Shown one piece after another: positions 5,671-14,524 of a DNA stretch of 14,524 nucleotides. The notes under the pieces are model-generated. The model saw nothing but the letters and a program-made list of their open reading frames with translations, was not told the DNA's origin and did no database searches. This stretch comes from a virus (lineage: Duplodnaviria; Heunggongvirae; Uroviricota; Caudoviricetes), in the IMG/VR virus record IMGVR_UViG_2718218128_000007, positions 1-14,524 of that record. One strand, written 5' to 3'. Made by a program: the position numbers and the translations under genes. How positions within the stretch are numbered: the stretch's first letter is position 1; each line of letters begins with the position of its first letter.

Positions 5671-6417
5671 ATGCGACATAATTTTTCTAAAGACACTATA
5701 AAAAAATTAGCAGAGCGGGCAGCATTCATTTGTTCAAACCCTTCATGCCCTAGATTGACCATTGGCCCATCAATTGATGGCAATAAATCAATCAAGACAG
5801 GAGTTGCTGCTCACATATGTGCAGCATCTCCTGATGGCCCACGCTATGACATGTCACAATCAGAAACAGAAAGGAAGTCAATTAACAATGGCATATGGCT
5901 GTGTGCTACTTGTTCTGTATTAATAGATAAGAATCAGGGGCTAGACTATCCGGCACCTGTATTAAGAAAATGGAAAAAAGATCATGAAAGCCTTATAAGC
6001 TCCTGTCTTGAAGGTTCGATTAATATTACCTTCGATGCTTTGAAATATATTCAACAGCATGATGAAAGAAATCTGGCAAAAAAGATTATAAATGAATTGG
6101 ATGATAAAGGGGCTTTGTTCGTAGAATATCATCTTGAAAACCCCTGTTTTGTTGCCGAATCACTCAAAGAGTTAAGAACATGTTTGACCTCTTTGCTTTC
6201 TCAAATCCCAGATGAATCACCTCTATTTATCGTTTGCAAGTCAATTCGAGAAGCATGCCGTTATTATATGAACAACACTTCTAAAGACGCAGGGATTAAA
6301 GAGTTAGAATTTTCGTTGGGAGCGGTCAGAAAAATCGTAGGTATCAACGTTAAAAGAATATCAGAAACCTACGGGGTTAAACCTAGCCCACAATTATCTA
6401 CCATAATGCCAGATTAA
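5671..6417 (+). CDS. AT-rich moron encoding a 248-aa protein with an N-terminal HNH-like (His-Me finger type) Cys/His motif and an uncharacterised C-terminal domain
   Basis: Long ORF on the strand opposite to all flanking genes. Motif: CSNPSCPRLT ... GVAAHICAASPDGPRY ... ERKSINNGIWLCATCSVLIDKN, i.e. CxxxxC ... AHI ... N ... CxxC, with Ser where the final His is usual. Sampled 60-nt stretches are roughly one-third GC, against roughly half or more in neighbouring genes. A terminator follows it. Confidence 0.65.
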   Translation: MRHNFSKDTIKKLAERAAFICSNPSCPRLTIGPSIDGNKSIKTGVAAHICAASPDGPRYDMSQSETERKSINNGIWLCATCSVLIDKNQGLDYPAPVLRKWKKDHESLISSCLEGSINITFDALKYIQQHDERNLAKKIINELDDKGALFVEYHLENPCFVAESLKELRTCLTSLLSQIPDESPLFIVCKSIREACRYYMNNTSKDAGIKELEFSLGAVRKIVGINVKRISETYGVKPSPQLSTIMPD

Positions 6418-6426
6418 ATCTGTTAC

Positions 6427-6469
6427 GCAGCAACAAAGTTAAACTCTATGTTGCTGCCTTAATTTTATT
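6427..6469 (+). terminator. rho-independent terminator of the moron gene
   Basis: Perfect 9-bp stem GCAGCAACA (6427..6435) / TGTTGCTGC (6449..6457) with a 13-nt loop, followed by CTTAATTTTATT on the plus strand. It sits between the moron stop (6417) and the convergent Q stop (6468). Confidence 0.55.
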
Positions 6470-6830
6470 ACTCCATTTCTAAACGAATATCCAGCATCGA
6501 GAGACAACCATCTATAAACCCTTCAGCCAACTGTATCTCTATACGTATCAATTTCTCATCTTTTTTGTATGCTTTTGCTATCTTCCTTTTCGAGATGCCA
6601 TACAGGTAATGAGCCACAATCAGAGAGTGCTCATACGGTTTTCTCTTCTTAAGAAGAGCAAGACAACCTTCAATAATTAATGCATCACTATCTGAACAAG
6701 CCTGACGTGTTTTGCTTGTATAGGGAAGAAGCCCTTTAAACCCAGCAGCTATAGGAGAATAGTCTACTCCAGAACTATCACTCGCCGCCCATGCTCCCCA
6801 ACGATCCAGAACCATCTGAATATCACGCAT
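6468..6830 (-). CDS. Q: late-gene antitermination protein Q (Phage_antitermQ type, as in phage 21 / DLP12-like elements)
   Basis: MRDIQMVLDRWGAWAA...IAAGFKGLL...ALIIEGCLALLKK...LAEGFIDGCLSMLDIRLEME matches my recollection of the small Q-type antiterminators. The track start at 6845 is TTG; the ATG at 6830 has a GGAGAAA Shine-Dalgarno. Operon position is upstream of the lysis genes. Confidence 0.75.
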   Translation of the reverse strand: MRDIQMVLDRWGAWAASDSSGVDYSPIAAGFKGLLPYTSKTRQACSDSDALIIEGCLALLKKRKPYEHSLIVAHYLYGISKRKIAKAYKKDEKLIRIEIQLAEGFIDGCLSMLDIRLEME

Positions 6831-6847
6831 CAACTTTCTCCACAAAA

Positions 6848-7171
6848 TCAGGCCAGCACACCAGTTGCCAGCGCACGATCGATAAAACGAAATATCAGCT
6901 CCAGTTGGGAGCCATACTTCTCTTCAAATGCCACGGTACCCTGGCGACGCGCCTTACGCGTTAACCAGCCTTCTGCTTCCAGCCGTGCGATAGCCGTTCT
7001 GACGGTACTCATCCCCGCGCCAATCTGACGGGCAATGGTTTCAATTGATGGCCAGCACACACCTTCGTCATTACTGAAATCAGCCAGGCGGGCCATAATT
7101 GCCACGCTGGATAATTTCATGCCTGACGCAGCGCAACCATCCCATACATAGCCGGTTAATTTAGTGCTCAT
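6848..7171 (-). CDS. winged-helix/HTH DNA-binding protein, possibly the N-terminal remnant of a replication-initiator-like protein
   Basis: 107 aa with an HTH-like segment LSSVAIMARLADFSNDEGVCWPSIETIARQIGAGMSTVRTAIARLEAEGWL. Its start overlaps the end of the upstream frameshifted gene and its stop abuts the Q start. Confidence 0.45.
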   Translation of the reverse strand: MSTKLTGYVWDGCAASGMKLSSVAIMARLADFSNDEGVCWPSIETIARQIGAGMSTVRTAIARLEAEGWLTRKARRQGTVAFEEKYGSQLELIFRFIDRALATGVLA

Positions 7172-7519
7172 GACCGACCTCTATTTCCCTGAATTTACGA
7201 CGAAACTGTTCGAGCGGGCTGAAGCACTCATGCTCATAGCCTTCACGGAGGTAGATAACCCGTTGTGTTTCCGGCTCCCAACGAATAACTCTGACGGGCA
7301 CTCCGTAGTGATCTTTGAACCAGCGGTTAACTTGTCGCAAAGGACTGTCTCCTTCTGCCGGTTGAAATCACCCACAGCCCACTCTGCAAAGCTGTGGGTT
7401 ACAATTTCCCTGTCACCTGGTACATTCACTGCATAGCAATATTCCACCTTCGCTTTTCCACCCGGTACAGGAAGCGCAATCAGTTGCGAGCGACGGTAGT
7501 GTGTTGTTAAACTGTTCAT
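7161..7519 (-). pseudogene. frameshifted gene of unknown function (two reading frames needed to span it)
   Basis: The frame from the ATG at 7519 gives [52 protein letters not shown]..., then degenerates into low-complexity sequence ending at 7181. A second minus-strand frame is open from 7367 to a TAA at 7161..7163 and reads as ordinary protein (...[61 protein letters not shown]). That second frame overlaps the HTH gene start by 11 nt in the usual coupled manner. This implies a single-base indel near 7330..7367. Confidence 0.4.
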
Positions 7520-8085
7520 GCGTTAGTTTCTCCACAACCAGAAGCAATCGACGCCACGACGCCCGGAGCTGCACACTCGCGGGCGTCATTACTTTCTGAA
7601 ATGCAAAAGATTTTGTAGACCAGTGCTGCATGCTCCTGCAGCTTCGAAATTGAGAGATACAGCTCGTCGTTAATTGCTGTCTTCTCATGCGGTTCCACTA
7701 CACCGTCTTCGATTGCTGAACGAATCTGTTTTGAATAACTGCCGATCTGTTCAATGACTTCCAGCAGACGCTGGTTAATATCGGCGTTGTCCACATCCTC
7801 GACGTCAGGAAGAGACACAAAGACGCCATTTGCAGACTGCGCCACAGCATCAGCAATGAAGTGAGTGCCACCAGCACGCTGTAAAACCATTGCCCATCCC
7901 AGCGGGAAAATCTGATCGCCATCTGCACGAAGGCGGTTGAATAAAGCGTTTTCTGTTACATCGAGCCAGTCAGCCGCTTCAGCGTAACCCCCCGGCAACG
8001 CCGCGATAGTTTTTCTGACAGCTTTCACGTACCACTCAGGCTGTTTTTCTATTTTCCAGTGATGCTTACCCACGATTAGCCTCAT
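7516..8085 (-). CDS. putative phage early regulatory protein (possibly CII/CP76-like); family assignment uncertain
   Basis: ORF 7516..8199 (-). The first 38 codons from the ATG at 8199 look non-coding (Arg/Ser/Phe-rich, over an AT-rich promoter-like region), so I prefer the ATG at 8085 ([25 protein letters not shown]...). Neither start has a clear Shine-Dalgarno. It heads the minus-strand early operon, divergent from the DUF551/AlpA pair. Confidence 0.35.
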
Positions 8086-8275
8086 CGTTCTGTGGTTAAA
8101 AATTGAAAGTGTTCTGCTAATCTTTCGGATAGATAATTGGCTGGCGTTCTCTCTGGTACACCTGGGGACAAAAAGAAACCGGAGAATGGCAGTGGACATT
8201 TCAGGTCGGGGACCTTGAAAACGTCAATATCACTCACTGGGCAGTAATGCCAAAAGCACCGGAGGCTGGAGCATA

Positions 8276-8896
8276 ATGACCACTTTTACCGACAAAGAAC
8301 TGATTAAAGAAATTAAAGAGCGTATCAGCAGCCTTGACGTGCGAGACGATATTGAGCGCCGTGCTTATGAAATTGCTCTGGCATCGCTGGAAGAGGATCC
8401 GGTGGCATGGCTGCATTCAGACAATGGCTTAGGTATTCCGGCAATAACGAGGAGTAAAAACATTGCTGACAGTTGGTTATCAAAGGGCTGGTATGTTCAG
8501 CCGCTATATATAGCCAAGCCAGTGCTGGTGGTGCCAGATGCTCGTCCGTCTTTAAATAATGGCATAGTCGGTTTTGATGAAGGCTGGAACGCCTGCCGCG
8601 CCACCATGCTTCATGGTGCCAAACCTGTAAGCCAGACTTACAAGTTGAACAAGCTATCGGGCAACTCTCCGGTAACTCCGGATGGTTGGATAAGCTGTAG
8701 TGAGCGAATGCCGAATGATAAACAGTATGTTTGGTGTTGGGGTAAGTCTTACGGCTGGACTGAGTACGATACCTTCGAAGGGTATTACGATTGGTCGAGA
8801 AACAAATGGTGGGCAGTTACTGACGATGGGGAAGAACCGGCATCGAAAGTAACCCACTGGATGCCGCTACCGGAGCCACCGCAGGAGGTGAAGTAA
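8276..8896 (+). CDS. DUF551-domain prophage protein
   Basis: C-terminal Trp-rich block DGWISCSERMPNDKQYVWCWGKSYGWTEYDTFEGYYDWSRNKWWAVTDDGEEPASKVTHWMPLPEPP is characteristic of DUF551. GGAGG Shine-Dalgarno upstream; stop overlaps the next gene's ATG (TAATG). Confidence 0.65.
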   Translation: MTTFTDKELIKEIKERISSLDVRDDIERRAYEIALASLEEDPVAWLHSDNGLGIPAITRSKNIADSWLSKGWYVQPLYIAKPVLVVPDARPSLNNGIVGFDEGWNACRATMLHGAKPVSQTYKLNKLSGNSPVTPDGWISCSERMPNDKQYVWCWGKSYGWTEYDTFEGYYDWSRNKWWAVTDDGEEPASKVTHWMPLPEPPQEVK

Positions 8897-9090
8897 TGAA
8901 CAACTTAATGACAACTAAACAAGTCGCCGACTTCTGTGGCGTTTCAGTATCGACCGTTCTTCGCTGGAACAGCGTAAACAGGAGAACTGGCCAGAAATAC
9001 AGGCCTGACTTTCCAGATCCTGATATTAAATCCTGCCCAAATAAATGGGCATCACGCAAGATATACAGGTTTGCTGGAGTTATTGAGTGA
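8896..9090 (+). CDS. AlpA/excisionase-like small HTH DNA-binding protein
   Basis: 64 aa; LMTTKQVADFCGVSVSTVLRWNSVNRR fits the Xis/AlpA-family HTH pattern (T-x-K-Q/E-V-A ... G-V-S ... T-V-x-R-W). GGAGGTG Shine-Dalgarno; translationally coupled to the DUF551 gene. Confidence 0.55.
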   Translation: MNNLMTTKQVADFCGVSVSTVLRWNSVNRRTGQKYRPDFPDPDIKSCPNKWASRKIYRFAGVIE

Positions 9091-9125
9091 TGGGTATTAG
9101 ATCATATCAGAACTAATACCCATCA
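9088..9125. repeat. 13-bp perfect inverted repeat (hairpin or protein-binding palindrome) at the boundary between the xis-like gene and the SIR2 cargo gene
   Basis: TGATGGGTATTAG (9088..9100) and CTAATACCCATCA (9113..9125) are exact reverse complements separated by 12 nt. No U-tract follows on either strand, so it is not a classical intrinsic terminator. Confidence 0.5.
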
Positions 9126-9292
9126 ATGACACAGAGCCAACTACCCACCCTGTGTCAGGGGCTAACTTTTAACACCATAATTCACCGCTAGATAAAAACT
9201 GTATTGCATTGCACGAGCGGCGCAGCATTATCAGTTAGAGTGTCTTTACCTTGTTAGGCTCCACAGTTCGCACTGTCCAACGCCTGTCACTT

Positions 9293-12200
9293 TCACACGC
9301 TGCGCCTTCGAGAATATTCATTTAATCGCTGATAACGAACATCTTGCTCCAGTTGTGGAGCAGCTTGAACAATTTGAAGCAAGCATTGCCCCAACTCTCG
9401 AGGCCCCCAGTGTTGGTCGGCAATCACGGCATTCAGCAGGGATAGAGCGTCCGCAGGATATCGGCTGCAAATATCTGATTTTAGCAAAAGGCGAACGTCG
9501 TAGCTAAGGTGTTCGAGCGGTTGCAGCCAGTCCTGCACCACTGCCAAAGCCGCCGGAAATTCACCTCGGGCAGCAATCACCATACGAGTCAACGATTCGG
9601 ATATGCGTGGGGTGGCCAAGTTGCGGGACTTTGGCCAAACCTGTTGCCAAAATGGCTGGACACGATTTTTCCAATACTCCTCGCGCTGATCGCCCGCACC
9701 TTCAAGTGCCTGGTATAACGCCTGCGCGGCTACCTCCAGACCTTCTTGTGGAAGAGCACTAATTGCCGTTCGGAACTCCTCCACGGTATATCCCTCGGTA
9801 GGGCCCAGAGCTGCATAAGTCAGGAAAGTAGCGAATTGCTGCCGGTGCTCGCCAAGATCAGAATAGTGATTGGCGCTCTCCAAAAAATCTGACTTGAAAG
9901 CTATCAGCAACGGTTCATACAGGCGTGGCGACCAGAGGAAGCCTTCCCACACAGCTTGTGCTTCGACGGGATTACTCCAAGCAAACAAGGGCAATAGATA
10001 CTGTTCGGTCCAAGGTCGATCTACGCGAAAAAATGCGATCAGCCGCGACCCCAGCAACACCCGACCATGGCGGAATAGCTCTATCTGTACATTACACAAT
10101 TTGGTGAAAAGTGTTTTCAATTCAACAGGAAGCAAATCATTGTCATTCGGGTTCTGTTTGAACCATAGGGTGATCAGTGATTGCGTGACATGCCCAATGG
10201 GATGATTGATCGCCGTAGAAACAGGATCATAGGTCTCAATTCCGTTTCGAATGGTGCTAGACTCTGGGCTTGTTTCTATCATCAGAACCCGACGACAAAG
10301 GGCCAGTAGAATCTCCTCGTGGCAGAGGATGGGCTTCGAAGCCTCCTCCATCCACCAAGTGACAGCGTGGGAAATCTCCTGAAGTACTGCGTCAGGCATG
10401 TCAAGCACCAACGGTGCGGCGTACCGCCACGAACGCAAAATCATCCCTGGTTCAGCCCAAGTCTGCAGAGCTTCACGCCACCGACCAACAGGCCACACAT
10501 CATCTTGTGATAGTTTACGTAACGCATACAGACTGTGAAAAAAGCGCGTACGGCAAACATCACTCCAAGTGTCCTCATAGAAAGGCAGTCTTTCTGGCAT
10601 AGGCTTTGCGAGCCATTGCACTAATTCCTGCCACTTACGGGGCGCAATGTCGACATCTATACTCTCCTCGAAGCCTGGATCACCGGTTCCGCTCATCCAG
10701 TGAGAGAATTCATCACGCTCGTTGGTTGCCAGTTGCCATTTTGGGTATGCTGTGGATATTTCCGTCAAACGTGTAGCCGCAGACTCTCCCAAAACAAGGC
10801 CCGCTCCCCTGAGCTTCGCTAGACACAACCAGACGGAATGAGCCACCAAATAATGCCACCTGTCTGCTTCCAAATTATCCTCGTACATCTCGCGCGGAGG
10901 CCCTGCCAAGATAGCAGTTTCCAGACGCTCTTGTGCAATTCCTGTCAGATGTCGTCCCTGCAAAACAAACAGTCTGAATACCTCTCGCCCAGTATCCGTG
11001 GCCCACAACCACCATGAACCGTCCTCTAACAACCAATTAACCCACCGCTCAGGTGGTATGCAGTTGTCTTGGCTTGCGGAAAACAGTGCCAGACGTTTGA
11101 AGGTGGGATATGGCAACTCAAACCAATTCTGAGCAATGCGCGTGGCCTGATCGCTGTCTTTGGCTCGAACGGCTAACCATGAATCCCGAAGTAATTCAAT
11201 CAGGCTCACCCAATCGCGGAACCCCCGGTTCTGCCAGTGCGGAGTGATGGACGGCAAATCCCAATGCGAGCGGTCGTGACGATCGTCGGACTCTCCCAAC
11301 TCCCGCAACAAGTCCAGTGCATCACGCAACAACTGCTGAAAATCTTCCAACAGGTATGGCAAGGACGATTTCCATGACTCGTCAGCAAGGTCGAACAGGG
11401 TTGAACGTACGTAATCAGCAGTCAGCACCAGCTCCCAATCCACCAATTGCTTGATTCGCAAGGGCTCATCAGTGCTGCTCGAATCGTCTTCACTATAGCG
11501 AAACGGCCGCCTCAACATAACCTTGGGAGAAAGCAACTCGCGTAACTCCAAACGCAATGTAGTCGTCAAGCCTTCATTCTTTAAGCGGTTTTGCCAACGA
11601 TACAAATCCAGGTTCTGCAATGGCGATTTCACACGACCACTAAGCAGAAGCCGCCATAAAGTAGACATAGGTGGACCAGGAATAGCCAGGGGGGAATGCA
11701 AGAGAATTTCATCTAACTCAGAAGTCTTACGCTCCCGCATCAGTGCTGCTAAGCGATCTAGTTCGCTCTCAATCAGAAACATCCAACGGTCGTGTATTTG
11801 TCCGCCGCGTTCAGCAATCCATATGATCAACCTAGGGTCGCCCAGATAACGAACTAGCCAACGGGCTATATGGGACATTACGTCATCCCATTTGCTAGCA
11901 CTGACACATCCAGAAACCAGCGACATCTGCGGGGCTAGCTCATAGGGCGCAGGACGCTGAACCAGACTGAATCGGAGTTTCGGGTCAATTTCGACATGCG
12001 GAGATACACAAAAGCGTGGCAGATCGCTGTATTTAAATCGTTCGTCCGAGAAAGCTTTCAATAACCAATCCAGCGGCGGTGCAGGATTGAGTTCCGCAAA
12101 ACATTTTGCTGGTAAACCTGACTTATCAGATAAGGCCCACATCATCCGACCAACGAAATCGTCCTGCCGAGTGCTATCCTGCGGGCGGGCCAGAGCATGT

Positions 12201-13120
12201 TTGACGACAATGGCTTCTTTGCCTTGTATACCATCGCGATAAATATTTGCCCAAGCACGCAATGTATGGTGCATCGCTGAATGATCATTGGAGTCCGCCG
12301 GTACGGTGTAAAGGATGGGGGTGACCCCCTTGGCCTCCCACTCGATAGATTTCCGGTGCTCCTGCCCCGGCTCACATTCTCCTAGTGCCCATACTTGCGG
12401 CGTGACTTCACCGAGCCTCCGATCTGCTGCCAGTGCGTCCATCATATAGCGTAGCACCGGGTCGTTGATGCTGTAGCCCACGAAGCAGACCACGTAGTTA
12501 CGGAACAAGTCACTTACAAAACGGGCAGCCCAGCGTTCCGTGAGATAGGCTAAGCCAAAGTCTCCACTAGTGACAACCAGACGATTCAGAGCAGTATCGT
12601 CTGTCTTTTCCGGTAACAACCCATGCAGGTAGACTATTCCGTCCCAGCGACTATTTTTCGGAATTGGCAGCATCGGCGCTACATAAGCCTGAAACGCTTG
12701 GGCCGTGCGTTTAGCTGCCACATGAAATAAGCGGTCAAAGTTGGTAGTAACTAACCGAAGGGCACCATCGCGACTACGCGCCAAACGCAACAGCGCCATC
12801 TGAGTATCAGTTGCGCCTCTATAGTGAAGTTTTGGCTTAAGGGCTTGTTCCAGCGCGCGACGGACGGCTATACGCTGTCCCGGTAGGCGCCGTTCCAACA
12901 AATCCAATGTGGCGTCGAACTGACCGCGCTTGAAGGCCTCACACTCAATTTCTGAAAGTGTTGTTCCGTTCAACTGGTAAATCCGCTTTACCAATCCCTT
13001 GAAACCTGGCAAACCAGCAGGGTAGGAAATGCCTGCCCCGCAGAAGAACACCACGCGGCCTTCCTCGTGCGCCTGCAAAAGTTCATCCGGAATATCAGGG
13101 CCGTTGGTGATAAATTGCAT
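9293..13120 (-). CDS. large single-gene SIR2-domain protein (defence-associated sirtuin-like): N-terminal SIR2 NADase-type domain plus about 1000-aa Trp-rich helical C-terminal region; candidate anti-phage/abortive-infection effector
   Basis: 1275-aa uninterrupted ORF with a strong Shine-Dalgarno (AGGAGGAAAAGGA) before the ATG at 13120. N-terminal motifs of the prokaryotic SIR2 family: VVFFCGAGISYPAGLPGF (NAD-binding GAGIS-type), LVTTNFDRLF (Asn 127), IVYLHGLL (His 165, 38 residues after the Asn) and CFVGYSINDP. No Walker A/P-loop is visible. Located between the integrase and the xis-like gene. Confidence 0.8.
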   Translation of the reverse strand: MQFITNGPDIPDELLQAHEEGRVVFFCGAGISYPAGLPGFKGLVKRIYQLNGTTLSEIECEAFKRGQFDATLDLLERRLPGQRIAVRRALEQALKPKLHYRGATDTQMALLRLARSRDGALRLVTTNFDRLFHVAAKRTAQAFQAYVAPMLPIPKNSRWDGIVYLHGLLPEKTDDTALNRLVVTSGDFGLAYLTERWAARFVSDLFRNYVVCFVGYSINDPVLRYMMDALAADRRLGEVTPQVWALGECEPGQEHRKSIEWEAKGVTPILYTVPADSNDHSAMHHTLRAWANIYRDGIQGKEAIVVKHALARPQDSTRQDDFVGRMMWALSDKSGLPAKCFAELNPAPPLDWLLKAFSDERFKYSDLPRFCVSPHVEIDPKLRFSLVQRPAPYELAPQMSLVSGCVSASKWDDVMSHIARWLVRYLGDPRLIIWIAERGGQIHDRWMFLIESELDRLAALMRERKTSELDEILLHSPLAIPGPPMSTLWRLLLSGRVKSPLQNLDLYRWQNRLKNEGLTTTLRLELRELLSPKVMLRRPFRYSEDDSSSTDEPLRIKQLVDWELVLTADYVRSTLFDLADESWKSSLPYLLEDFQQLLRDALDLLRELGESDDRHDRSHWDLPSITPHWQNRGFRDWVSLIELLRDSWLAVRAKDSDQATRIAQNWFELPYPTFKRLALFSASQDNCIPPERWVNWLLEDGSWWLWATDTGREVFRLFVLQGRHLTGIAQERLETAILAGPPREMYEDNLEADRWHYLVAHSVWLCLAKLRGAGLVLGESAATRLTEISTAYPKWQLATNERDEFSHWMSGTGDPGFEESIDVDIAPRKWQELVQWLAKPMPERLPFYEDTWSDVCRTRFFHSLYALRKLSQDDVWPVGRWREALQTWAEPGMILRSWRYAAPLVLDMPDAVLQEISHAVTWWMEEASKPILCHEEILLALCRRVLMIETSPESSTIRNGIETYDPVSTAINHPIGHVTQSLITLWFKQNPNDNDLLPVELKTLFTKLCNVQIELFRHGRVLLGSRLIAFFRVDRPWTEQYLLPLFAWSNPVEAQAVWEGFLWSPRLYEPLLIAFKSDFLESANHYSDLGEHRQQFATFLTYAALGPTEGYTVEEFRTAISALPQEGLEVAAQALYQALEGAGDQREEYWKNRVQPFWQQVWPKSRNLATPRISESLTRMVIAARGEFPAALAVVQDWLQPLEHLSYDVRLLLKSDICSRYPADALSLLNAVIADQHWGPRELGQCLLQIVQAAPQLEQDVRYQRLNEYSRRRSV

Positions 13121-13306
13121 TCCTTTTCCTCCTATCCAATGTGGATATTCATTCGAGCAAATTAGGGGACAATGGGGCTACAGATTATTAGACCGACTAT
13201 GCAAACACTGCTTCCTTGCAAGCTACCCTGATCTAGCCAAATCACAATGTCCGCTCTCCTATCAAAGCAAACGGCTAGATTTGATTGTATTATGGCTACT
13301 CAAGGA

Positions 13307-14524
13307 TCAGTTAGAGTCTGAGCAAGTAATTATCGATTCAATCCTCTCCCACCATGCCAAGTAAGCTTTACGCTGTTCTTCTAGATAATCGCTCTTATCA
13401 TAAACTTGCCATACCCCTGGCAGCTTATGACCAAGCATGATTTCTGCGATATGAGGCGCAGTAAGATCAGAAAAATTTGTTCGTGCTGTCCGTCTCAAGT
13501 CATGAAGAGACCAATGAGGGAATTGATACCCAAAACGCCGCCATGCGTATTGCATTAAATTGTAAGGTAGCGACTGCAAGGATGTCCGACCAACTGGTTC
13601 CCTGCTTCCTTCCTTAGTAAAAAGCATATCGGAACCGTTGTTCATAGAGATAACGTATTTTATAAGCTCTTCAACCGGTTCAATAATGGGCCGCTTTAGC
13701 GGTTCGTCTGTTATATCCCCTGTCTTATGTCGTTCTGGTGGTACAGTCCATATTTTATTAATGAAATCAAAATCGTCCACCTTGGCAGTAATTAGCTCTG
13801 AACTACGGCAACCAAAATGCAGCAATAGTTTAATGAAGGCCCGGTATTTAGGAACCATTCGAGAACCATCGATCGCAGCATAAAGGATTTTAATTTCATC
13901 ATGTGTCAGAAACCGTTTCTTCTGACCTTTACGGATATCCATATCTTTACCCGTGATATCCGACAGCGGGCGAGTTTCAATGAGCTTTCTCTTATACGCC
14001 CAGACATGGGCCTGCTTTGCGTTAATTAGCAATCGGTCTGCTATTGCTGGAGTCTTAGTGCTAAGAGGCTCCAGGACTTCTAACCAATCATGCAATGTAG
14101 CTGCATCGTGAGGGATATTCCCGATTTTAGAGAACAGGTGCAGCTCAAACGAGCGGAGTATCTGTTCAGAACCTTTTTTATTTTTTACACAATATGCTTC
14201 ATACCAAGCACGGATCACAGATTCTACCGTCATGGCTTCAGTAGCTTTACGTTTTTCTGCCAGCTTGACCAATCGTGGATTGCGGTTTGACTCGAGTTCA
14301 CCACGAAGACGGATAACTTCTTCTCTGGCCTCTTTTAGTCCAGTTGACGGGTAAGTTCCGATATCAAGACGCTCACCTTTCCCCGCCCACTGATAACGAT
14401 ATTGGAACACTACGCGACCTTTCGGTGATACTCTAACAGACAGACCATCACGATCGGATTTAACCAAAACCTTATCACGTTCCTTTCCAACGACTGAACG
14501 CAACCACGCATCAGACAGCGCCAT
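13307..14524 (-). CDS. int: tyrosine site-specific integrase (P4-like, with arm-type N-terminal domain)
   Basis: 405-aa ORF whose ATG is at the window edge (14522..14524). The N-terminus (MALSDAWLRSV...GLSVRVSPKGRVVFQYRYQWAGKGERLDIGTYP...LKEAREE) resembles P4-type integrase arm-binding domains. C-terminal catalytic-region motifs: HDLRRTARTNF and LGHKLPGVWQVYDKSDY (candidate tyrosine nucleophile). Confidence 0.85.
   Translation of the reverse strand: MALSDAWLRSVVGKERDKVLVKSDRDGLSVRVSPKGRVVFQYRYQWAGKGERLDIGTYPSTGLKEAREEVIRLRGELESNRNPRLVKLAEKRKATEAMTVESVIRAWYEAYCVKNKKGSEQILRSFELHLFSKIGNIPHDAATLHDWLEVLEPLSTKTPAIADRLLINAKQAHVWAYKRKLIETRPLSDITGKDMDIRKGQKKRFLTHDEIKILYAAIDGSRMVPKYRAFIKLLLHFGCRSSELITAKVDDFDFINKIWTVPPERHKTGDITDEPLKRPIIEPVEELIKYVISMNNGSDMLFTKEGSREPVGRTSLQSLPYNLMQYAWRRFGYQFPHWSLHDLRRTARTNFSDLTAPHIAEIMLGHKLPGVWQVYDKSDYLEEQRKAYLAWWERIESIITCSDSN

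Follow-up and report, generated by a model that had tools for sequence, protein, structure and literature searches.

Does a 1275-residue protein with an N-terminal SIR2 domain, encoded beside a phage integrase, represent a new anti-phage system or a member of a known one? The gene lies at positions 9293–13120 of a 14,524-nucleotide stretch of viral DNA (referred to here, at its full length, as the window). The first-pass annotation read it as a DSR-type, single-gene, NAD+-depleting defence protein carried as prophage cargo. The core of this reading is right, its NADase and defence part being supported by homology, and the wording "DSR-like" can be sharpened, since Dsr1 itself is what the gene encodes. 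The ORF is best explained, with a probability of about 0.9, as an intact dsr1 allele; dsr1 (defence-associated sirtuin 1) is an anti-phage system already known, made up of a single gene. The coordinates first assigned to the ORF are exact, the strand, which had been omitted, is minus, and the strong ribosome-binding site ascribed to the gene is indeed present (Table 1).

The family assignment is carried by models that cover the protein from end to end. The NCBIfam Dsr1 equivalog NF041818 scores 2050.9 bits against a cut-off of 1400 bits, with residues 1–1271 aligned to profile positions 1–1263. The PADLOC Dsr1 model PDLC02183 scores 2711.7 bits over residues 1–1275 of 1275, a second PADLOC Dsr1 model also matches (E = 5.6e-192), and PHROG 15208 covers residues 1–1275 of 1275. 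The C-terminal 1000 or so residues, for which a check against defence models had been suggested, are thus spanned by a PADLOC Dsr1 model. The window is 100% identical to Escherichia coli strain S3, and the S3 gene was already known, since the public annotation of that genome (RefSeq) names it dsr1. The protein has 97% identity to a cluster representative found on 488 contigs and belongs to a 90% cluster of 418 E. coli and Shigella Dsr1 proteins. The distribution of the gene is patchy and on mobile elements, with 76 carriers among 5426 E. coli genomes. Its neighbours are wholly unlike between hosts: a lambdoid prophage in E. coli, a Tn7-like element in V. cholerae and a lone chromosomal insertion in Nitrogeniibacter. 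Across these loci Dsr1 has no conserved partner gene, implying that it acts alone.

Table 1. Features of the dsr1 locus, in window coordinates.
Feature	Position	Strand	Basis or remarks
DUF551 gene, far side of slot, conserved phage gene	8276-8896	plus	Pfam DUF551
64-aa ORF, far side of slot, conserved phage gene	8896-9090	plus	without RefSeq annotation
Variable cargo cassette holding dsr1	9141..13322	no strand	limits are where Ayreon homology stops and resumes
dsr1 coding sequence, intact	9293..13120	minus	ATG start, 1275 codons + stop; RefSeq WP_073507471.1
C-terminal sensor, residues 341-1275, alpha-helical HEAT/ARM-like solenoid	9296..12100	minus	
SIR2 NADase effector module with linker, residues 1-340	12101..13120	minus	Pfam SIR2_2; alignment to KomC NADase
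His166 codon (YLHG), predicted catalytic	12623..12625	minus	invariant in 111/111 homologues; opposite KomC H146
Asn127 codon (TTNFD), predicted catalytic	12740..12742	minus	invariant in 111/111 diverse Dsr1 homologues
Shine-Dalgarno AGGAGG	13128..13133	minus	7 nt 5' of ATG; read directly from sequence
Tyrosine integrase of lambdoid prophage, prfC-integrating	13307..14524	minus	Pfam Phage_integrase, Arm-DNA-bind_3, Phage_int_M; PHROG 1

The N-terminal effector module is a SIR2 domain of the defence type. Pfam SIR2_2 matches residues 123–269 with E = 1.5e-22 and 80.7 bits, far above chance (cut-off 24.5 bits), so the doubt whether a SIR2 model would match at all is removed. The motifs first seen by eye are present as GAGIS (residues 28–32), TTNFD (125–129), YLHG (164–167) and GYSIND (215–220). 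Asn127 was correctly picked as one of the catalytic pair; the histidine had been placed at residue 165, which is a leucine, and the catalytic histidine is predicted to be residue 166, so that the mutant to be made should read H166A and not H165A. The 111 homologues in which both residues were compared include some with no more than about 34% identity over the sensor. The closest solved SIR2 relatives of the Dsr1 profile are KomC (E = 2e-10), ThsA (E = 1.7e-4) and DSR2 (E = 1.2e-3); the match to DSR2 lies in its SIR2 region, where the catalytic histidine is H171 by the names of the PDB entries.

Dsr1 is said to have been defined by Gao et al. in 2020 (Science 369:1077), and later studies on homologues provide insights into its function. 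A DSR1 expressed in Bacillus subtilis depleted NAD+ during infection, with a loss that was only transient and no culture collapse (Garb et al., bioRxiv 10.1101/2021.12.14.472415), so that the outcome may or may not be abortive infection. In E. coli, the dsr1 gene of ECOR17 with 300 bp of upstream DNA protected MG1655 from an evolved T4 clone that has nrdC.5 among its deletions, and infection was restored when nrdC.5 was expressed (Srikant et al. 2022, PMC9391042). Another way past DSR1 is the NARP1 pathway (10.1101/2024.02.11.579819). The trigger, taken as unknown in the first-pass annotation, has since been reported for the E. coli protein: in a preprint from 2026 (PMC12803255, with a further version in April 2026), the major capsid protein of phage ZL19 is identified as the unique activator of EcDsr1 toxicity, which requires the NADase domain.

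By analogy with these homologues, the SIR2 domain of the S3 protein, with Asn127 and His166, would be held inactive in the uninfected cell. Upon infection, the C-terminal helical-repeat sensor of about 930 residues would bind a phage protein, the reported ligand of E. coli Dsr1 being the major capsid protein. Binding would switch on the SIR2 domain, NAD+ would be hydrolyzed to ADP-ribose and nicotinamide, and the loss of NAD+ would halt phage replication. The phage could respond with T4 NrdC.5 or with pathways that rebuild NAD+. NADase activity and protection from phage are thus what the homologues lead one to expect of the S3 allele, and the capsid trigger may carry over to it, as suggested by one preprint on WP_029488749.1, a protein whose closeness to the S3 allele is judged by family models.

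It is conceivable, though on balance unlikely, that the S3 allele is a Dsr1 that senses something besides the major capsid protein, or that the outcome is a reversible slowdown and not abortive infection. The capsid trigger comes from a single screen with a single phage, described in a preprint, and the ECOR17 protein acts on T4, a very different phage. The sensor is also the more variable half across the Dsr1 family, with 73–81% identity versus 88–89% in the SIR2 half. A slowdown would fit the transient NAD+ loss without culture collapse in B. subtilis. However, the S3 sensor is about 99% identical to that of the common E. coli allele group, and the same specificity is therefore expected if the EcDsr1 protein tested belongs to this group. 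As to the breadth of phages, the HK97 fold is common to the capsid proteins of T4 and of T1-like phages, so that one sensor could recognize both.

The S3 allele differs from other E. coli alleles in a way that bears on its history. In 300-nt windows, the segment encoding residues 1–340 has 85–96% DNA identity to the allele of CB9615, versus at least 99.3% elsewhere in the gene, and the codon differences in this segment comprise 92 synonymous and 28 non-synonymous ones. The same segment has 97% protein identity to a group of alleles encoding 1276 aa. By these comparisons the S3 allele is a natural chimera, in which residues 1–340 derive from the 1276-aa group and the remainder derives from the 1275-aa one, and the breakpoint near residue 340 coincides with the junction of the SIR2 module and the sensor. 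Accelerated or relaxed evolution of the SIR2 module was considered as an explanation and rejected in favour of recombination: the predominance of synonymous changes (92:28) indicates purifying selection, and the identity to a second widespread allele group shows that the divergence of this segment comes from recombination and not from decay. Nevertheless, many of the 28 residue differences from the common E. coli allele in the SIR2 module leave the family consensus, and the activity or regulation of the S3 allele could therefore differ.

The description of the gene as integrase-adjacent prophage cargo holds. The tyrosine integrase lies 186 nt upstream of dsr1 on the same strand, its DNA is 96% identical to that of its counterparts in phages Ayreon and cdtI and in Stx-converting phages, and the prophage is a lambdoid element in the 5' end of prfC. 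In a blastn comparison of the window with Ayreon, homology is found solely at 14524–13323 and 9140–8136. The same slot is occupied in Ayreon and cdtI by BovA (Borvo) instead, and the DUF551 gene and the 64-aa ORF adjoin the slot in Ayreon, cdtI and CB9615 as well. An Stx2c phage has a 517-aa ORF in the slot, and S3 has a hypothetical gene of equal length near prfC; a comparison showed the two to be unrelated, and their identity was rejected. Elsewhere in the window, a second candidate defence gene was noted at 5671–6417, and searches of the whole window returned no Rfam family and no tRNA.

The S3 prophage has decayed to about 18 kb, with dsr1 still intact. It is without repressor/cro, replication genes and the entire morphogenesis module, and fusion scars are present. 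Since the prophage is defective, the expression context of dsr1 may have changed. One may even ask whether the gene is a relic, carried along as a silent or inactive passenger while the prophage decays and giving its host no more protection. The heavy deletions and fusion scars, the failure of a simple consensus scan to find a sigma-70-type promoter in the 186-nt gap upstream, and the 28 residues at which the SIR2 module departs from the common allele point in this direction. Nothing can be concluded from the promoter scan, because 300 bp of upstream DNA was enough for ECOR17 dsr1. Against the idea of a relic, the ORF is full-length and covered end to end by the family models, every conserved SIR2 residue is intact, the strong ribosome-binding site is retained, and the N-terminal segment is under purifying selection and recombinant rather than decayed, which together make such a passenger improbable.

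Recombination in the gene and exchange in the slot suggest a broader but rather speculative scheme, in which E. coli Dsr1 alleles would shuffle effector and sensor modules as units and the integrase-proximal slot of lambdoid phages that integrate at prfC would serve specifically for swapping single-gene defences (Dsr1, Borvo and the 517-aa gene). We regard this scheme as doubtful. If it were true, module shuffling could evade phage inhibitors directed against one module, such as T4 NrdC.5, while capsid recognition is kept. The module-level recombinant found in S3 could help to show whether NrdC.5 targets the SIR2 half of Dsr1 or the sensor half.

The C-terminal region had been characterized as rich in tryptophan and leucine and devoid of an NTPase motif, and both points are borne out: residues 231–1275 contain 4.4% Trp and 13.5% Leu, and the protein has neither a Walker A motif (G....GK[ST]) nor an NTPase Pfam domain. 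Pfam finds no domain besides SIR2_2, leaving residues 270–1275 uncovered. An AlphaFold2 model of residues 231–1275 built from 50 close homologues (75–98% identical) was poor (pLDDT 61.9, pTM 0.44), gave uninformative Foldseek matches and was replaced by a sensor model from 62 diverse sequences with a pLDDT of 89.9. The region is a helical-repeat sensor of about 900 residues without an NTPase domain, and the only folds that match it are generic HEAT/ARM solenoids. No solved structure matches it by sequence, and DSR2, with which a comparison of folds had been suggested, is missing from its top structural matches.

The lack of a Pfam family for residues 270–1275 and of a specific sequence or structural match might suggest that the protein is a new DSR-like variant with a diverged or unclassified C-terminal sensor, as the first-pass annotation had considered. 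This reading is very improbable, being refuted by the full-length matches to the Dsr1 models of NCBIfam, PADLOC and PHROGs and by the approximately 99% identity of the sensor to that of the common E. coli Dsr1. Moreover, a search with the sensor gave 2747 cluster representatives as relatives, and the best 150 of these 2747 all have the Dsr1 architecture. That the protein is instead a housekeeping protein deacylase of the canonical CobB/Sir2 type with a large regulatory extension can practically be dismissed, since its GAGIS Rossmann loop matches CobB/SIRT3-type sirtuins only weakly (NCBIfam deacylase model, E 0.2, cut-off 221 bits; PDB, E ~0.03, residues 13–48), whereas its Pfam family is SIR2_2 and not SIR2 (PF02146), residues 1–340 have no CxxC zinc module, the solved structures closest to it are those of the defence NADases KomC, ThsA and DSR2, and its occurrence is patchy and tied to mobile elements.

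The gene is therefore ordinary, being an intact copy of the already described dsr1, and publications on the family already describe depletion of NAD+, protection against phage, a gene with which phages counter the defence and, most recently, a trigger. The value of the check is a negative one, a promising lead having proved to be a textbook example of a system already known. The locus itself is a clean natural case of a defence gene that outlasts the decay of its prophage, and it shows how Dsr1 and Borvo cassettes replace each other in one fixed slot next to a phage integrase.

Comparison with known systems places the S3 protein clearly. It differs from SIR2-HerA systems in that its neighbours are the integrase and the DUF551 gene and the hits of SIR2 models are weak (E 4e-4), and from SIR2-STAND (Avs5) and other Avs proteins in lacking a Walker A motif, an NTPase domain and any hit to a PADLOC Avs model. 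Thoeris pairs a SIR2-SLOG/STALD protein with a TIR partner, ThsB; here the ThsA models match weakly (E 4.1e-6) and over residues 13–230 only, and no TIR gene was found in the window. Dsr1 has the GxGxS, TTNxD and catalytic histidine motifs in common with the SIR2 domains of ThsA (Thoeris) and KomC (Kongming), but these two proteins belong to multi-gene systems and are switched on by small-molecule signals made by a partner, whereas Dsr1 has no partner and carries its own sensor. Avs7 (SeAvs7), a STAND NTPase, is reported in a preprint to have a homologous bent helical-repeat sensor and the same class of trigger, the major capsid protein (PMC12803255); Dsr1 is without the STAND NTPase and has a SIR2 effector where Avs7 has a Cap4 nuclease. 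DSR2 (B. subtilis 29R; PDB 8k98, 8wkt and others) is likewise one large polypeptide, in which a SIR2 NADase at the N-terminus is joined to a helical sensor at the C-terminus; the phage structural protein bound by this sensor is the tail tube protein. However, no PADLOC Dsr2 hit was obtained at E<=1 and the DSR2 chains are matched only in the SIR2 region. The closest counterparts are the E. coli Dsr1 proteins. EcDsr1 (WP_029488749.1) comes from the same species, falls in the same family in every model, is of the same 1275-aa length class and has the same SIR2 and helical-repeat sensor architecture, a likeness judged by family models; the S3 allele differs in being a recombinant. ECOR17 dsr1, also from E. 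coli, needs no second gene and is effective with the 300 bp that naturally precede it (PMC9391042).

The protein encoded by the single very long ORF of the window almost certainly belongs to the Dsr1 family (probability about 0.97), and S3 dsr1 is an already known system. The window DNA is 100% identical to that of E. coli S3 (NZ_CP010228.1), where RefSeq names the gene dsr1 (WP_073507471.1). The PADLOC Dsr1 model PDLC02183 aligns over residues 1-1275 of both model and protein with 2711.7 bits, a second PADLOC Dsr1 model also aligns (E 5.6e-192), the NCBIfam equivalog NF041818 ('anti-phage defense-associated sirtuin Dsr1') covers residues 1-1271 with 2050.9 bits, well above its 1400-bit cut-off, and the PHROG 15208 match spans residues 1-1275. 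Pfam reports SIR2_2 alone (residues 123-269, E 1.5e-22). The first-pass annotation had suggested that the C-terminal sensor may be diverged or unclassified; the full-length model matches, the RefSeq name in S3 and the widespread homologues show that it is neither. Every defining feature of Dsr1 that can be checked in silico is present.

The gene occurs in 76 of 5426 complete E. coli genomes, in 72 of them at 95-99% identity, and the 90%-identity protein cluster holding S3 Dsr1 comprises 418 sequences from E. coli and Shigella, with a representative 97% identical to the S3 protein. Full-length homologues of 77-83% identity, many already named Dsr1, are found in Rahnella, Pectobacterium, Enterobacter, Vibrio cholerae, Thauera, Ferrovum, Acidithiobacillus and others. 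Such full-length conservation across Enterobacteriaceae, Vibrio, Rhodocyclales, Ferrovum and Acidithiobacillus (77-83%) is unusually high for a defence gene. Within the family the SIR2 half (residues 1-340), at 88-89% identity, is better conserved than the sensor half (residues 341-1275), at 73-81%.

The large ORF and its strong ribosome-binding site were described correctly in the first-pass annotation, with AGGAGG read from the sequence 7 nt 5' of the ATG. Its SIR2 motifs (GAGIS, TTNFD with Asn127, YLHG and GYSxxD) were all recovered, the histidine numbered 165 there being residue 166. The remainder is Trp- and Leu-rich as described (4.4% Trp and 13.5% Leu in residues 231-1275), and the protein contains no Walker A motif. 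An alignment of 111 homologues, whose sensor regions range down to ~34% identity, shows no variation at Asn127, Asp129, His166 and Gly167 and almost none in GAGIS and GYxxxD. His166 lies opposite His146 of the KomC NADase, the position mutated in PDB entry 9xvc. Against solved structures, the Dsr1 profile matches KomC (2e-10), ThsA (1.7e-4) and DSR2 (1.2e-3), in each case within the SIR2 region only. A housekeeping deacylase, the alternative raised at the outset, is excluded because residues 1-340 carry no CxxC zinc module and the Pfam search gives no PF02146 match, SIR2_2 being matched instead.

The sensor half matched no solved structure by sequence. For residues 301-1275, AlphaFold2 with 62 diverse homologues gave a confident model (mean pLDDT 89.9, pTM 0.59) that consists almost wholly of helical repeats. 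As to the proposed comparison of the C-terminal fold with DSR2, DSR2 is missing from the top structural matches listed for the Dsr1 sensor. When the sensor alone was searched against 1.84 billion cluster representatives, 2747 relatives were found at E<=1e-3. The best 150 of these are mostly ~1250 aa long with the sensor beginning near residue 340, and all seven relatives sampled carry an N-terminal SIR2_2 domain. The relatives of the Dsr1 sensor form a large coherent family.

The S3 allele is a recombinant with its breakpoint at the effector-sensor junction, since residues 1-340 share 97% identity with a second E. coli allele group (1276 aa) and the remainder ~99% with the 1275-aa group. Compared in 300-nt windows with the common 1275-aa allele of CB9615, codons 1-340 show 85-96% DNA identity and codons 341-1275 at least 99.3%. 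Codons 1-340 differ at 28 non-synonymous and 92 synonymous codons. Decay was rejected as the cause of the divergence of these codons; the pattern is read from the sequences as recombination under purifying selection.

The window sits in a ~18-kb island bounded by yjjG and prfC. On the attL side a 69-nt piece of the prfC 5' end adjoins yjjG, and at the opposite end a DinI-like gene precedes the intact prfC. A 42-nt stretch is similar at both ends and contains a 14-nt core that is identical. Downstream of dsr1 lie lambdoid genes for DUF551, CII-like YmfL, antiterminator Q, holin, GH24 lysozyme, Rz, an HNH endonuclease, a P27-type small terminase, tail-fibre pieces and a tail-fibre assembly protein. 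The island, these genes and the adjoining integrase bear out the earlier view of dsr1 as integrase-adjacent prophage cargo. Relative to the copies of this prophage inserted at this site in FDAARGOS_1287 and O55:H7 CB9615, that of S3 lacks the repressor and cro genes, has lost the replication genes except for a fusion ORF, and has lost the entire head and tail module. As these deletion scars indicate (the HTH_36::DUF968 fusion, and the terminase abutting a truncated tail-fibre ORF), the S3 prophage is defective, yet dsr1 is intact.

Features of the window and related records (positions are those of the window unless stated otherwise)
Feature	Position	Strand	Remarks
dsr1 ORF	9293-13120	minus	1275 codons, ATG start
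SIR2 half	12101-13120	minus	residues 1-340
Sensor half	9296-12100	minus	residues 341-1275
GAGIS motif	residues 28-32		
TTNFD motif	residues 125-129		contains Asn127
YLHG motif	residues 164-167		Leu165, His166
GYSIND motif	residues 215-220		
Integrase	186 nt 5' of dsr1	minus	405 aa, tyrosine type; arm-binding, central and catalytic domains
Slot downstream of integrase	9141-13322		comparison records: L005 6203-8543; L007 6219-8591; L011 1875-4019
64-aa ORF	8896-9090	plus	directly after DUF551 gene; no RefSeq annotation in S3
HTH_36::DUF968 fusion ORF	6848-7171	minus	HTH_36 replication-protein N-terminus and last 28 residues of DUF968
248-aa ORF	5671-6417	plus	GC 0.36; opposite strand, between antiterminator Q and holin
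Small terminase	2254-2874	minus	followed directly by the next entry
Truncated tail-fibre ORF and tail-fibre assembly gene	1492-2250	minus	
Hexapeptide sugar acetyltransferase	1-669	minus	NeuD/PglB/VioB type; GC ~0.41; after tail-fibre genes
Stretch beyond window	L004 24905-26000		MaoC dehydratase
V. cholerae dsr1	6001-9825		contigs L008, L009

The slot directly downstream of the prfC-site integrase is a swap site. The integrase DNA shares 96% identity with the integrases of Ayreon, cdtI and numerous phages that convert to Stx1a or Stx2c production; homology to Ayreon ends at 13323, 16 nt before the integrase stop, and restarts at 9140. The slot is occupied by a 729-aa BovA (Borvo) gene (PADLOC E 2e-241) in Ayreon and cdtI, and by a 517-aa ORF on the opposite strand with no Pfam or PADLOC match in Stx2c_PV98-693. 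Integrase and dsr1 occur together in one Stx2c record. The 64-aa ORF is conserved: Ayreon and cdtI have an annotated 195-nt gene in the corresponding place. In V. cholerae, a 79%-identical Dsr1 lies within a Tn7-like element carrying Csy3/Csy4, and the Nitrogeniibacter gene stands alone beside the atp operon. Across these contexts dsr1 is the sole conserved unit, a single-gene cassette moving between mobile elements. The V. cholerae element, whose Csy3/Csy4 are of type I-F, encodes TnsA, a TnsB-like rve protein and TniB/TnsC, with an IS-type DDE_3 transposase adjoining.

The 248-aa ORF is a candidate second defence gene of the prophage remnant. It has no Pfam match and is hypothetical in RefSeq. 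Its first 130 residues match the PADLOC candidate PDC-M68A (E 7.5e-27), and the first ~115 match CBASS effector nuclease domains (E down to 4.8e-21) and SduA; the N-terminal domain also matches three PHROGs annotated without function. Of 5426 E. coli genomes, 25 carry the ORF with an identity of >=99%. The acetyltransferase and the MaoC dehydratase, which also follows the tail-fibre genes, are possibly surface-sugar modification cargo.

Published homologues suggest how Dsr1 acts. One DSR1 depletes NAD+ during infection, in that case transiently and without culture collapse (Garb et al., 10.1101/2021.12.14.472415), and the phage NAD+ reconstitution pathway NARP1 defeats DSR1 (Osterman et al., 10.1101/2024.02.11.579819). 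ECOR17 dsr1, together with 300 bp of its upstream region, shields MG1655 from an evolved T4 clone that has lost nrdC.5 among other sequences, and expression of nrdC.5 brought infection back (Srikant et al., PMC9391042). A 2026 preprint (PMC12803255) describes the sensors of Dsr1 and of the STAND protein Avs7 as homologous. In it, EcDsr1 toxicity is reported to have a unique activator, the ZL19 phage major capsid protein, and to depend on the NADase domain. For Avs7, EF-Tu is part of the complex. By analogy with these homologues, the most likely route in S3 runs from sensor through SIR2 NADase to NAD+ loss: the helical sensor would bind newly made capsid protein, releasing the NADase, and the loss of NAD+ would halt the phage. 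The capsid-trigger step probably holds for the S3 allele.

Among known SIR2 systems, ThsA, SIR2-HerA and SIR2-STAND do not describe the S3 protein, because the defining partner or domain of each is missing at S3 dsr1. The S3 protein is not a DSR2 either, but DSR2, like Dsr1, joins a SIR2 NADase to a sensor that recognises a structural protein of the phage, and the S3 protein would by analogy work in the same way.
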